A stretch of DNA of 17,253 nucleotides from Nitrospirota bacterium (GCA_040758355.1 JBFLWF010000039.1:1-17253); one strand, 5' to 3'; shown: positions 1 through 14,213, counted from the stretch's first letter. Notes: generated by a model from the letters alone, not told the origin. Translations and numbers: made by a program.

Positions 1-123
1 GAATAAGTCCTATAGGACTTATAAAACCTATTCCTCTCAGTGCTCCGCACTGGCCCGTTCGACTTGCATGTGTTAGGCACGCCGCCAGCGTTCGTTCTGA
101 GCCAGGATCAAACTCTCAATAGT
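1..123 (-). rRNA. rrs: 16S rRNA, 5' end only (runs off the window edge), with an enlarged V1/helix 6 region
   Basis: Reverse complement of 56-116 reads AGAGTTTGATCCTGGCTCAGAACGAACGCTGGCGGCGTGCCTAACACATGCAAGTCGAACG (27F site at 97-116 plus conserved 5' domain). Mature 5' end is approximate. Confidence 0.97.
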
Positions 124-186
124 TTTCGTTGAAATTTGATTCCGGTTAAAACTTGTTTTTGGAGTTCACGCACGCACTTATTTAGC

Positions 187-201
187 AGTTTTCAAAGAAC
201 A
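187..201 (-). promoter_or_regulatory. rrn leader boxA antitermination element
   Basis: Minus strand TGTTCTTTGAAAACT lies between the putative promoter and the 16S 5' end and matches the boxA consensus. Confidence 0.75.
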
Positions 202-209
202 AGATGATT

Positions 210-239
210 ATATTACCCTAATCATGAATTCTTTGTCAA
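210..239 (-). promoter_or_regulatory. Putative sigma70 rrn promoter
   Basis: Minus strand TTGACA (239-234), 18-nt spacer, TAATAT (215-210), directly upstream of boxA. Confidence 0.6.
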
Positions 240-10952: not shown

Positions 10953-11572
10953 TGTTTTATTACAAACTCTTTAAAGCCTTTGAGGATTTTCAGGCCAAGT
11001 TCCTGGCTTTTTTCCGGATGGAACTGTGTTGCAAATATGTTGTCCCTCCAGATCATCGATGTAAATTCAAGCCCGTAATCCGTTGTCCCTGCAACAATAT
11101 CTTTATCTTCCGGTGCAACATAATAGGAATGGACAAAGTAGAAATAGGAATTGTCCTGTATCCCGTCAAATACAGGCGGCTTCTTGACAAACCTTACTGC
11201 ATTCCAGCCCATGTGCGGAATCTTCAGGTCTGAACCTGCATCGAATTTGAATTTCAGAACCCTTCCCCTGAACACATCCAGTCCCTTGCAGATACCGAAC
11301 TCTTCAGACTCTGTAAACAATATCTGCAATCCGAGGCATATGCCTAAATAAGGCTTGCCCTTTTGGGTCTCTTTCACAATAGAGTCGAGGAGCTTAAGAT
11401 TATCAAGGTTTTTCATGCAGTCTCTGAATGCGCCCACACCCGGAAGCACTATGCCTTTTGCGTCAGCAAGAACCTTCGGGTCGGATGTAATCTTCACATC
11501 AGCGCCGATTTTTATGAACCCCTTTTCAACGCTCCTGATATTGCCCATTCCATAGTCAACGATAGCTATCAT
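10949..11572 (-). CDS. hisH: Imidazole glycerol phosphate synthase, glutamine amidotransferase subunit
   Basis: [43 protein letters not shown]. Start may be 11572 or 11590. Confidence 0.96.
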
Positions 11573-11583
11573 AGTCTTTGATT

Positions 11584-13998
11584 TTACCATACGAGAAAAA
11601 GTTTTTTAAAATTCATTAACTCATCCCTGACAGTCTTTGCTTCCGTGAATTGCAAATCCTTCCACGTCTTTATCTCAAGCCTTCCACCGGGCAGTTCCTT
11701 AATACCAATAGCCCCTTCCTTGTCGGTTCTGAATATTTTTACGCCATCAAGCATATCGAGTGCTTCGTCATGCGGATGGTTGTATGAATTTTTTCTTCCA
11801 ACGCTTATCACGGCAATATCTGGAGAAACAGCAGAAACAAACACCTGCGACGAGGATGTGCGGCTGCCGTGATGAGGGACTTTCAGGACATTGCTTTTAA
11901 GATATTCTCCAAAATGCGACAGATCTTCTTCTGCCTCTTCTTCAATATCTCCTGCAAAAAGAAAAGTATTCTTATGGCCCTGAATCCTCAAAACAATGGA
12001 ATCATTATTCTCATCGCTGTCTCTTGAATGCATTGTGTAAAAACCATCATAGGGATGAAGGACAGTAATTATGTATCCACTCCCTTCAATAACATCGCCC
12101 CTCTGTAGTTTTCTAATCCGCAATCCCATGAATCCTTGGGGATAAATGAGTCTGCCGTTGTCCCATATCTCTTGAATATTAAAATTCCTTAAAAGATGAA
12201 ATATTCCACCTGCGTGGTCGGATTGTCCGTGGGATAAAATAATAGCATCGATATTTTTGATCCCTCTGTATTTTAAAAACCCGCCTGTCTGAAAACCCTT
12301 TCTGCCAGCATCTATCACAAGAGTCCTCTTATCAGGAAGTTCAACCACTGCAGAATCTCCCTGCCCCACATCAAGATAGGTGATACTTATCCCATTGGGT
12401 TCAAGAAGTTTGATGCCAGCGTAAAAAACAATCGGAAGAATTGCAACACCAGCCGGAATGGCTATAGGCAATAGGCGATAGGCTGAAGGATGTAAAATCA
12501 AAAAAACATAAACCAGAATCCCGAGATAAAATATAACCAACAATACAGGAGGGAATGCGGGAATCTTTATGTCTACAAAATTCCACTGTGCGGTGTACTT
12601 TATTGCATCAAGAACGAAAATTGTAATCGCATCGATAAACGAAGATAGCAGGAAAACACCTGAAGCAAGAAAAACAAACGAAGACACGAGGGATAAAGGA
12701 AGAACAACAAATCCGATAACAGGTGTAATAATAAGATTTGTAATGGGCGATACGAGAGAAAAATAATGGAAATAATAAGCAACAAGCGGTGCAGTTCCGA
12801 TGGTTGCAGCAAGGGAGATCAGTAATGGAGTGATGGAGTAATGGAGTAATGTTTTTTTCCAATACTCCACCACTCCATTACTCCGGTTCTTTTTGCTCCA
12901 TGACTCCATCACTCCATCTTTTCTTTGTTCTGCAACCATTCCTATGCATAATACAGCGATAAAAGAGAGCTGGAATGAGAGGTCGAGGATCGAATCAGGC
13001 TGGATTAAAATTATCACTACTGCTGCAAAGAGCAGTGTATTCAGCCAGAACCCTTTTCGATGAATGAGTAGGCTGGAGAGGAAAAATGTAATCATAATAA
13101 AAGACCTTATGGAAGGTATGCTCATGTCCGATATTCCGAGATAGCCGATCATAAATGGAATGCATAAGATTGCAGCAATTTGAGAAGGGGTGAGATAAAG
13201 CGTCAATCTGACAAGCATATTATACGGCAATGCCTTTAAGAGAAATCTGAACAGTCTGAACAAGATAAACAGCAATAAACCGAAATGTGCCCCTGATATG
13301 CTCAGTATATGCGCAAGTCCTGTGGCATTAAATGCATCCCTCGTCTCCTTTGTCAGCAAACTGCGCTCTCCTGTTGTTATAGACATGAGAAAAGGAGATG
13401 ATTCCGAAGAAAAATTCCTCTTCATGAAGTCATTAAGCCGTATTCTTAACCTCTTAAAAAATCCGTTAGGATTACTGCCGGCATCCTTGATCTCAACAGC
13501 ATATCCCGAAAGGAGATTATGATTGCTCCCCGGATTTAAAGAGTATGCATCCTTAGGAATATGCGCCTTGATGTGGTATATCCTGTCTGAAAGCAATACC
13601 CTATTGCTTATTAATCGCAATTCTTTTAAATTCTCCGGCTCTCTGATTTCTATTCTCTGGGAAAAGGCTGCCACGCCTTGATATGATTCAGGATCCAACG
13701 AAACGGCTTCTGAATTTGTCACGCCTCGAAGCTCTATAGTTTCACCGGCAATATGAGAAAGGGAAGGCTGCTGTATATATAAAAACTTCGCGTAATAAAA
13801 TCCTGAAACAGCAATAACCAAAAACCAGAACACAGAGAACAGAATACAGAAAACAGACTTAACATCTTTCTGATTTCTGAACTTTGAAAAAGCCAATAAG
13901 ACTATCAATATCAGGGATATAAAAACACTTAAAAAAGGGAAGAATCTATGGATATAAAAAAGTGCTGTGCCGCAAATGAATGAAATAAAATAGCTCAT
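11584..13998 (-). CDS. comEC: DNA internalization competence protein ComEC/Rec2
   Basis: TGLAHILSISGAH, SIRS, LSFQLSF, LDVGQGDS, metallo-beta-lactamase domain with NNDSIVL, GDIE, LKVPHHGS, YNHPH. Confidence 0.95.
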   Translation of the reverse strand: MSYFISFICGTALFYIHRFFPFLSVFISLILIVLLAFSKFRNQKDVKSVFCILFSVFWFLVIAVSGFYYAKFLYIQQPSLSHIAGETIELRGVTNSEAVSLDPESYQGVAAFSQRIEIREPENLKELRLISNRVLLSDRIYHIKAHIPKDAYSLNPGSNHNLLSGYAVEIKDAGSNPNGFFKRLRIRLNDFMKRNFSSESSPFLMSITTGERSLLTKETRDAFNATGLAHILSISGAHFGLLLFILFRLFRFLLKALPYNMLVRLTLYLTPSQIAAILCIPFMIGYLGISDMSIPSIRSFIMITFFLSSLLIHRKGFWLNTLLFAAVVIILIQPDSILDLSFQLSFIAVLCIGMVAEQRKDGVMESWSKKNRSNGVVEYWKKTLLHYSITPLLISLAATIGTAPLVAYYFHYFSLVSPITNLIITPVIGFVVLPLSLVSSFVFLASGVFLLSSFIDAITIFVLDAIKYTAQWNFVDIKIPAFPPVLLVIFYLGILVYVFLILHPSAYRLLPIAIPAGVAILPIVFYAGIKLLEPNGISITYLDVGQGDSAVVELPDKRTLVIDAGRKGFQTGGFLKYRGIKNIDAIILSHGQSDHAGGIFHLLRNFNIQEIWDNGRLIYPQGFMGLRIRKLQRGDVIEGSGYIITVLHPYDGFYTMHSRDSDENNDSIVLRIQGHKNTFLFAGDIEEEAEEDLSHFGEYLKSNVLKVPHHGSRTSSSQVFVSAVSPDIAVISVGRKNSYNHPHDEALDMLDGVKIFRTDKEGAIGIKELPGGRLEIKTWKDLQFTEAKTVRDELMNFKKLFLVW
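12459..12493. repeat. 7-nt tandem repeat tract (AGGCnAT), in-frame in comEC
   Basis: TGGCTAT AGGCAAT AGGCGAT AGGCTGA AGGATGT; no inverted partner seen. Confidence 0.6.
12821..12918. repeat. Inverted 8-nt tandem repeat element (GGAGTRAT), in-frame in comEC
   Basis: AGTAATGG AGTGATGG AGTAATGG AGTAATG (12821-12851), inverted CCAATACT CCACCACT CCATTACT CC (12859-12884), and a second inverted arm GCTCCATGACTCCATCACTCCATC (12895-12918). Confidence 0.88.
13817..13889. repeat. Inverted 7-nt tandem repeat element (nACAGAA), in-frame in comEC
   Basis: ACCAAAA ACCAGAA CACAGAG AACAGAA TACAGAA AACAGAC, then inverted TCTGATT TCTGAAC TTTGAAA. Confidence 0.7.
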
Positions 13999-14213
13999 GG
14001 CTCATAGTGATTCCAATCTAAAAATATATGTCAGGTGCTGCGAAAAGACTTTAAACCACGCACTTGTAAAGACATTTATCCTGTATCCGTCATCTACTAC
14101 ATTGGATACTTGATGGATAATGCATTTATTATCTCTCATATACGCTTGAACCAACACTTTTTAAAGTCTTTGAGCAGTGCCTGACATATATAAAAAGCTA
14201 TGAGCTATGAACT
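13992..14213. repeat. Inverted 7-nt-period arms (GCTCATA) bracketing the glmM-comEC intergenic region
   Basis: Left AGCTCATGGCTCATAGT (13992-14008) versus reverse complement of 14197-14213 AGTTCATAGCTCATAGC, 14/17 identical. Confidence 0.7.
14024..14191. other. 168-nt rod-like fold-back element (MITE-like or structured ncRNA)
   Basis: 32-nt terminal inverted repeats (14024-14055 and 14160-14191, 28/32 identical) plus internal stems CATTTATCC/GGATAATG and GTATCC/GGATAC. Confidence 0.7.

Follow-up and report, generated by a model that had tools for sequence, protein, structure and literature searches.

A protein of the four-helix-bundle family, S23p, is encoded in the intervening sequence (IVS) of the 23S rRNA gene of Coxiella burnetii, where tandem GACAGAT heptamers of strain-variable copy number lie just upstream of the open reading frame (ORF) (PMC4990558). 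Here we describe a cassette in which a gene of the same protein family lies between two arms of tandem repeats, together with arrays of such repeats throughout the same genome. The cassette was found on a 17,253-nucleotide (nt) stretch of DNA from a Nitrospirota bacterium (the window), which is the entire contig C39 of a 2.77-Mb genome in 93 contigs that is 99% complete. Below, G000 denotes this genome, other G numbers the genomes of relatives, L numbers four-helix-bundle loci, and C a contig. As in the Coxiella IVS, a terminal stem encloses the gene in its loop; here, that stem is made by inverted 36-nt arms that are 83% complementary, and the whole cassette folds better than shuffled sequence (z -5.45). 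Unlike the IVS as described in that source, the cassette occurs between protein genes (its neighbors in the window are ugd and a TPR gene, and positions 1-54 alone fall in 16S rRNA) and in clustered regularly interspaced short palindromic repeat (CRISPR) arrays, both of its arms are arrays, its units differ between clades, and arms lacking the gene occur dispersed and undergo swapping.

Paired tandem 7/8-mers were reported for Geobacter metallireducens and read as "global regulator binding sites" (Aklujkar 2009, PMC2700814). As here, those arrays fall into several unit classes, have 3-5 copies, form opposite-strand pairs with variable spacing, and are both intra- and intergenic, and the proBA site holds a different sequence in a sister species. 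The initial annotation of the window called its repeats undescribed; the 2009 report takes precedence for paired arrays of several unit classes, and what stands is the cassette-wide link between the parts. Neither the main text of the Geobacter paper nor 12 of its 19 supplements gives a link to four-helix-bundle genes (the other seven supplements could bear on cargo), and the text covered describes no systematic replacement of units.

Single-unit systems have also been reported, namely, the GGGAATC repeats of Xanthomonas, with 70-75 convergent heptamer pairs per genome and 83% of sites retained between species, the GGGGA(C/T)T repeats of Nostoc (Rehm 2015, PMC4692102), and the TAACTGA repeats of Beggiatoaceae (MacGregor 2015, PMC4679880). 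Like the arrays described here, these are heptamer arrays of mostly about four units, with in-frame cases and an unexplained origin; MacGregor suggested a mobile repeat-binding protein and left the mechanism open. Each of the genomes studied there has one unit, whereas dozens of units and fast same-site turnover are found here. The phrase "four helix" occurs in neither main text.

Two further systems share single features with the cassette. The protein belongs to a four-helix-bundle fold family distantly related to Avd of diversity-generating retroelements (DGRs). Avd is a nucleic acid-binding protein. Unlike DGRs, which combine a reverse transcriptase (RT) with Avd, the window protein scored below the Avd cutoffs and no RVT_1 domain was found in G000. 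Repetitive extragenic palindromic (REP) sequences are conserved in sequence and flank a RAYT gene; here, the arms are tandem arrays on either side of a nonenzymatic gene, and the ends of the G000 Y1 genes are of another kind. The likeness to REP/REPIN sequences with RAYT is that of dispersed hairpin-forming repeats that an HUH enzyme may mobilize in trans (PMC3116915, PMC3733652). In searches of an open-access library, we found neither a link between PF05635 genes outside rRNA and unit-specific arms nor a description of systematic same-site unit replacement. What is new here is a counted, outgroup-checked, unit-for-unit replacement at fixed sites.

Replacement of array units at orthologous sites

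Arrays were called with a period detector at a score of at least 10, with Markov simulations as the null (30 for the window and two for the genome). Seven period-7 and six period-8 arrays were found in the window against 0.07 and 0.0 expected, and the 11 loci that the initial annotation had listed as degenerate tandem repeats proved to be arrays with the units that it had read. The genome holds 398, 168, and 77 arrays of periods 7, 8, and 9, respectively (643 in total), compared with 7-8, 7-10, and 3-13 in the two simulations (about 25 in total), and thus has the excess of tandem 7- to 9-nt repeats over composition-matched expectation that marks long simple-sequence (heptamer/octamer) repeats. 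Four or five copies were present in 429/642 arrays, the score threshold dropping most shorter ones. Moreover, 261 distinct consensus units occur among 642 arrays, consistent with the earlier view that the unit, unlike the sequence of a miniature inverted-repeat transposable element (MITE), differs from locus to locus.

To compare orthologous sites, all 539 G000 array loci were searched for in G002, a congener in which the flanks of compared loci average 92% identity and of which 1.22 Mb, under half of the genome, was used. At the 245 loci that could be mapped, G002 had the same unit at 70, a different unit at 66, an intermediate one at 7, a weak array at 22, and none at 80; by chance, an array would occupy 2.7% of random windows of equal length. 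Where both genomes have an array, about half of the sites differ in unit altogether. Array similarity was bimodal, with 66 sites below 0.2, 70 at 0.35 or above, and only 7 between. The swaps alter the period (from 7 to 8 or 9) and both arms together, between genomes that are about 92% identical. Within genes (ORFs of at least 450 nt, crudely called), 41/41 swaps changed length by a multiple of three, with a median change of 12 nt, and same-unit loci had a median change of 0. Because the in-gene change is small and in frame, the new array takes the position of the old one and is not added beside it.

To polarize the swaps, 420 kb of G003 was used as an outgroup. Among 22 swapped sites that could be mapped there, 4 shared the unit of one ingroup genome, with no old array left in the other, and 6 had a third unit. 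On comparison of the sequences, those four sites are clean, polarized replacements. Replacement also extends to the gene: beside tsaD, G000 and G002 have different four-helix-bundle genes (44/115 identical residues), with 8-mer arms in one and 7-mer arms in the other, between common flanking CRISPR-type repeats, which aligns as a swap of the whole gene-plus-arms cassette. We conclude that whole-unit replacement at one site is the main feature of these arrays, one that the initial annotation missed.

Presence/absence variation, which had been proposed as a check on mobility, was also seen: 42 sites in relatives were shortened and array free, and across five to six relatives the window sites were empty, held another unit, or held another hairpin family. 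With this variation, the excess over simulation, and the arms at every PF05635 hit of G000 (see below), none of the outcomes named earlier as refuting applied. The expected target duplications did not appear. A duplication of at least 4 nt was found at 3/16 clean empty sites (mean of 2.7 versus 1.8 in the null), so no fixed length was seen, and outer repeats scoring at least 11 were found at 0/61 hairpins; the fixed-length target-site duplication of MITEs and DDE elements is thus absent from these samples. Direct repeats of 17-31 nt around some cassettes were considered as long duplications and rejected, as they are CRISPR repeats. The idea, formed by eye, that targets are chosen because the host site resembles the unit was unsupported (P = 0.18 for the 16 clean and for the 42 empty sites).

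The four-helix-bundle gene and its arms

The cassette in the window consists of three parts:

1797..1832, plus strand: 5' arm of purine-rich 8-mers (GAGCAGAA type), coding for the last residues and stop of ugd
1847..2194, plus strand: intact four-helix-bundle gene (PF05635 / TIGR02436), 115 amino acids (aa)
2194..2229, plus strand: 3' arm of complementary 8-mers, coding for the C terminus of the convergent TPR gene

The protein matches PF05635 at 122.6 bits (cutoff, 33.8; E value, 1e-35) and TIGR02436 at 115.3 bits (cutoff, 24; E value, 1.5e-33). We know of no function for the PF05635 family. Similarity to bAvd was below the cutoff for both PF22296 (34.9 versus 40 bits) and NF033474 (26.9 versus 80 bits). 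A structural homolog is XCC0516 (2gsc, 5 chains; E value, 2e-18), which has been described as a homopentamer (PMC4990558). The nearest relatives of the window protein are largely from Nitrospirota, many of them labeled Thermodesulfovibrionales or Thermodesulfovibrionia; no match was found in phages, and 29 plasmid records, mostly cyanobacterial, were matched. The cassette is absent from the site in 4/4 congeners. At the same junction in G003 (L032), a small-protein gene with repeated DRRFEAI-like heptads stands in its place.

Association of arrays with the gene held genome-wide, as the initial annotation had anticipated. All six PF05635 hits in G000, one of them an internally deleted fragment, lie between inverted arms, each with its own unit. 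The sole GxxExxY (PF13366) gene of G000, at G000:C7:41150-41650, lies inside inverted 9-mer arms and represents a second cargo family in like packaging. In all, 113 loci were examined (29 from relatives, 80 from a search for relatives of the protein, and 4 of G000), of which 108 could be aligned and 104 had full flanks. Inverted repeats scoring at least 14 flanked the gene at 82/104 loci, compared with 4/104 in a reversed control.

Comparison of the protein phylogeny with the arm units, another check proposed earlier, showed that arm similarity tracks protein identity. Among the 58/108 loci that passed arm-quality filters, 5-mer similarity of the arms rose over six bins of protein identity (0.03, 0.03, 0.05, 0.12, 0.32, and 0.61), from 0.03 at <45% identity to 0.32 at 65-75% and 0.61 at 75-90% (Mantel rho = 0.13; P = 0.004). 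Protein clades that share a unit reach across several phyla. The pattern shows, at the level of sequence, that gene and arms travel together, which is not evidence that the protein binds its arms. The purine-rich arm comes first in 55/66 genomic hairpins, and cassettes have equal polarity (55/66). Moreover, a 14-mer in common with cassette arms of other genomes was found in 67/648 genomic arrays, compared with 24 and 7 in two controls.

Eleven of the 108 loci lie in or beside CRISPR arrays or CRISPR-type repeats, and 9 of these are among the 25 closest relatives (at least 60% identity) of the window protein. The loci are G000:C24:130-660, L004, L018, L029, L057, L059, L062, L063, L065, L089, and L116. 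The cassette of L018 takes the place of the final "spacer" and is followed by a last, partial repeat.

The proposed decay of autonomous cassettes into hairpins was borne out in part. A series from cassette to hairpin to lone arm was seen at 381-490 of the window, on contig C20, and at 12459. The remnant at 420-472 matches, at 79% identity, the 3' end of a four-helix-bundle gene that is intact in G025 and also has TCAGC-type arms (E value, 1.4e-5 per genome), and the site of 381-490 is empty in G001 and G004. Beyond known genes, no further remnants were found in array regions with hidden Markov models (499 regions) or position-specific scoring matrices (531 regions), in a search whose profile is biased to the query subfamily and scored the remnant at 420-472 at 8.9, below the threshold of 10. 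With so few gene remnants, decay of the cassette is shown for few loci.

Pairing and the other loci of the window

Hairpin formation, claimed earlier for most of the loci, held for 9 of the 11 listed in the window, which fold far better than shuffled sequences (z -3.5 to -9.6); 2873-2982 (z +0.5) and 12455-12495 (z -0.1) do not. Genome-wide, a reverse-complement partner within 1.5 kb was found for only 153/642 arrays, compared with 22 (reverse), 51 (complement), and 57 (direct) in controls. Pairing is therefore real, yet most arrays are lone. The array loci outside the cassette are as follows:

1..54, minus strand: 9-mer-unit hairpin lengthening 16S rRNA helix 6 (V1), truncated at the contig end (Rfam SSU, 1-123)
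381..490, plus strand: decayed cassette, TCAGC-type 7-mer arms flanking the 3' remnant (420-472) of a four-helix-bundle gene (z -4.4)
2873..2982, no strand assigned: 8-mer pair (AAGCAGTT type), old and decayed (z +0.5); unit kept in G002, G003, and G004 (3/3 alignable congeners)
3229..3318, no strand assigned: 7-mer hairpin (ATGCGTA type) upstream of the porin gene (z -7.1); site empty in G001 and G002
6415..6540, no strand assigned: 7-mer hairpin (AAATCCT type) between ispD and the PIN/TRAM gene (z -4.4)
7547..7616, no strand assigned: 7-mer hairpin (AGTGAAT type) containing the htrA stop (z -3.5)
12459..12483, plus strand: lone in-frame 7-mer arm (ATAGGC type) in comEC, partner lost (z -0.1)
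12821..12918, no strand assigned: in-frame 8-mer hairpin (GGAGTAAT type) in comEC (z -5.6)
13812..13888, no strand assigned: in-frame 7-mer pair (ACAGAA type) near the comEC N terminus (z -4.5)
13990..14006, plus strand: left GCTCATA units overlapping the comEC start codon
14011..14195, no strand assigned: separate, sequence-conserved nested-hairpin element, not unit built, between heptamer arms
14196..14213, plus strand: right TATGAGC units, coding for C-terminal residues and stop of glmM

Several sites changed between relatives. The site of 6415-6540 is empty in G001, G004, G016, and G019, and G002 and G003 have there a relic of another, sequence-conserved element. At 7547-7616, the AGTGAAT type is kept in G019, the site is empty in G002, G003 has a 6-mer unit, and G001 and G004 have an 8-mer unit. 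In comEC, the array at 12459 is paired in G001, G002, G004, and G022, has another unit, also paired, in G009, and is missing from G016 and G017; the pair at 13812-13888 is absent from G001 and G002 and is an 8-mer pair in G004. At 12821-12918, GCAG-type units occur in G002, G003, G004, and G016 and other units in G001 and G019, and the GGAGTAAT-type hairpin likely replaced an older GCAGAAGA-type pair. The junction at 14196-14213 has other units in G001, G003, G004, and G019.

Arms were said to supply start codons, stop codons, and C-terminal residues. Arms do code for the stop or the last residues of four genes, namely, ugd, glmM, htrA, and the TPR gene. The start codon was misattributed: the ATG of comEC agrees with the unit, yet relatives that lack a GCTCATA array have it too, and it is the host's own.

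The array within 16S V1 was called correctly and is an extension of helix 6 by about 45 nt. The locus is complete in G019, where it is a gene-less 9-mer hairpin; G003 has heptamer-type arms there, and G004 has a short helix. Both 16S copies of G000 (window 1-130 and the end of G000:C9) break at one point of the helix 6 hairpin, and the remaining 16S is unassembled.

The cargo assigned to the arrays was correct for the intact gene at 1847-2194 and the fragment at 420-472. The "long hairpin" at 14011-14195 is instead a separate conserved element of about 150-190 nt, with an internally deleted form of about 40-60 nt, that has 68 matching loci in G000 and dozens per congener and is in reversed orientation at this site in G002. 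The element has no Rfam match, and none of 12 DUF772-bearing loci matched it as a parent transposase. It alone has the sequence-conserved terminal inverted repeats of MITE and DDE elements, which the arrays, with their many units, do not.

Genes of the window are the 16S 5' end, a tRNA, ugd, the four-helix-bundle gene, the TPR gene, a porin-like gene, ispF, ispD, the PIN/TRAM gene, htrA, comEC, glmM, ybbR, and dacA, together with selB and hisH, which were named from their sequences. Rfam matched only the tRNA and the 16S fragment, and a promoter and terminator scan of 1700-3400 gave results at chance level. Two tiny membrane-protein ORFs, the first of them DUF6722, lie between the porin gene and ispF (4773-5067). 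An in-frame insertion of about 27 codons relative to G002 and G004 lies in ispD (5860-5960) and contains GGGACAG-type palindromes like the ends of the G000 Y1 transposase genes; G001, G003, and G019 have short heptamer-like runs at that spot. Among sequencing runs listed as containing the stretch, none was of RNA. Contigs from 4 DNA runs have joints that skip 377-505, 1799-2243, and 6384-6545, but probably come from relatives and are not independent evidence. In one of these runs (X2), a contig has a 36-nt hairpin of the 16S-locus 9-mer family directly after the porin stop (4685-4687).

Proposed paste-over and its alternatives

One way in which units could be exchanged at a fixed site is if a selfish cassette has arms that, alone or with the gene, get pasted over existing arrays and hairpins. 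We favor this explanation and regard it as evenly poised between right and wrong. The cassette comprises a purine-rich arm, the four-helix-bundle gene, and a complementary arm; pieces of it would be pasted over old arrays or hairpins by a putative enzyme encoded elsewhere, which would explain why sister species have different units at one site. The protein, a predicted homopentamer by homology to XCC0516, may bind its own arm of four to five units as a single strand and favor it as the donor. Old arrays, being prone to breaks or nicks, would be the preferred targets, and purifying selection would remove all events except those at transcript junctions and those that keep the frame in permissive loops. 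The first candidate for the enzyme is an HUH (Y1/RAYT-like) nickase that would act in trans with host repair, and not an RT; this is the weakest step, and by itself we consider it less likely than not.

A search for co-occurring RT or HUH enzymes had been suggested earlier as a check. RT showed none, and PF05635 and Y1_Tnp were both present in 12/12 array-rich relatives. Array density was higher in genomes with PF05635 (69 arrays in 430 kb across 26 genomes) than in those without (6 in 379 kb across 14 genomes; P = 0.019), in a sample of 4-40 kb per genome taken mostly around comEC.

Several observations weigh against paste-over by a trans-acting enzyme. Y1_Tnp is common anyway (31/41 genomes), and both G000 Y1 genes have their own, nonarray inverted ends and not the flanking repeats of a REP/REPIN-RAYT system. 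No catalytic partner was found in or beside any cassette examined. The density test is not independent, because the 12 array-rich genomes all belong to one family, and 11 of the 26 PF05635-bearing relatives, some with 5-7 copies, lacked arrays in the DNA sampled. Coinheritance alone would give the link between unit and clade, and L053 departs from its 8-mer clade in having 7-mers. About 500 array regions yielded just 2 remnants of the gene. Finally, other hairpin families use the array sites too, and this sharing, together with the 9-mer arms of the GxxExxY gene, means that the four-helix-bundle gene may be only cargo.

One alternative is that an ordinary transposase or recombinase inserted cassettes independently into a few tolerant sites, where they then collapsed, with the protein as cargo and no preference for old arrays. 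Apparent replacement would in that case be insertion that recurs, combined with deletion. At 12/22 swapped sites, no array was detected in G003, several of which hold degenerate arrays there by eye, and this allows for independent insertion into an empty permissive site. Consistent with such insertion, empty sites exist, unrelated hairpin families occupy the same sites, and decay intermediates are found. Capture-recapture on in-gene sites (89 and 74 nonshared, with 41-44 overlapping) nevertheless puts the number of reusable sites at about 150 across some thousand genes, probably fewer than tolerance alone would suggest. Moreover, an intermediate with a full cassette inside an essential gene would be costly, and the four polarized swaps left no old array. 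We consider independent insertion unlikely.

Alternatively, the arrays could be long simple-sequence repeats that arise, and then change where they stand, through slippage of the polymerase and switching of templates in hairpins, with the genes as incidental passengers. Drift would fit the predominance of lone arrays, the lack of target duplication, the scarcity of gene remnants, and the order of variants within arrays, which is mostly unshared (3/13 unit families at P < 0.05, uncorrected). It does not fit the bimodal similarity of orthologous arrays or the joint change of period and both arms at about 92% identity, and it offers no reason for arms at 82/104 genes, a common polarity, or units that related proteins share across phyla. 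We regard drift as improbable.

An RNA route, in which the protein chaperones arm RNA for an RT in the manner of Avd and short templates are copied repeatedly, is very improbable. The cassette folds as RNA, the protein has weak similarity to bAvd, and RVT_1 is present in 3/4 congeners. Both Avd scores are below the cutoff, however, and RVT_1, present in 14/41 genomes and 6/12 array-rich relatives, was found neither in the 99% complete G000 nor in the other 6, which argues against a DGR-like route; moreover, array density was unrelated to RT presence (P = 0.49). Long open frames with an RT domain (689-894 aa), possibly RT-Cas1 fusions, were noted at G001:C71, G003:C1:1489650, and G004:C136. Least probable of all is selection for host regulatory sites, whether global regulator binding sites or mRNA-processing stems as proposed for Geobacter and Beggiatoaceae, since, although many arrays lie at gene junctions and have long stems and the IVS stem of Coxiella is a substrate of RNase III (PMC4990558), the unit is kept at only 70/245 loci in a close congener, 346/648 arrays lie deep inside crudely called ORFs, and junction occupancy is alike for co-oriented (186/1837), convergent (19/231), and divergent (25/233) gene pairs.

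It is possible, though doubtful, that the cassettes constitute a new mobile system in which a ring-shaped, noncatalytic protein recognizes its own arm of four to five units and, with a borrowed nickase, overwrites competing arrays at fixed chromosomal slots. If so, those slots would include essential genes, rRNA helices, and CRISPR arrays, and one process would account for the fast turnover of protein linkers, the protein family of rRNA IVSs, and the heptamer repeats that lack an explanation in many phyla. Heptamer and octamer repeats in Geobacter, Xanthomonas, Nostoc, and Beggiatoaceae have no explained origin, and the G000/G002 pair makes both that origin and the function of the PF05635 family testable, as it offers clade-specific protein-arm pairs and dozens of exact in-frame sites of unit swapping. 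Paste-over, if real, would mean rapid remodeling of loops in core proteins by a reaction that leaves no target duplication.

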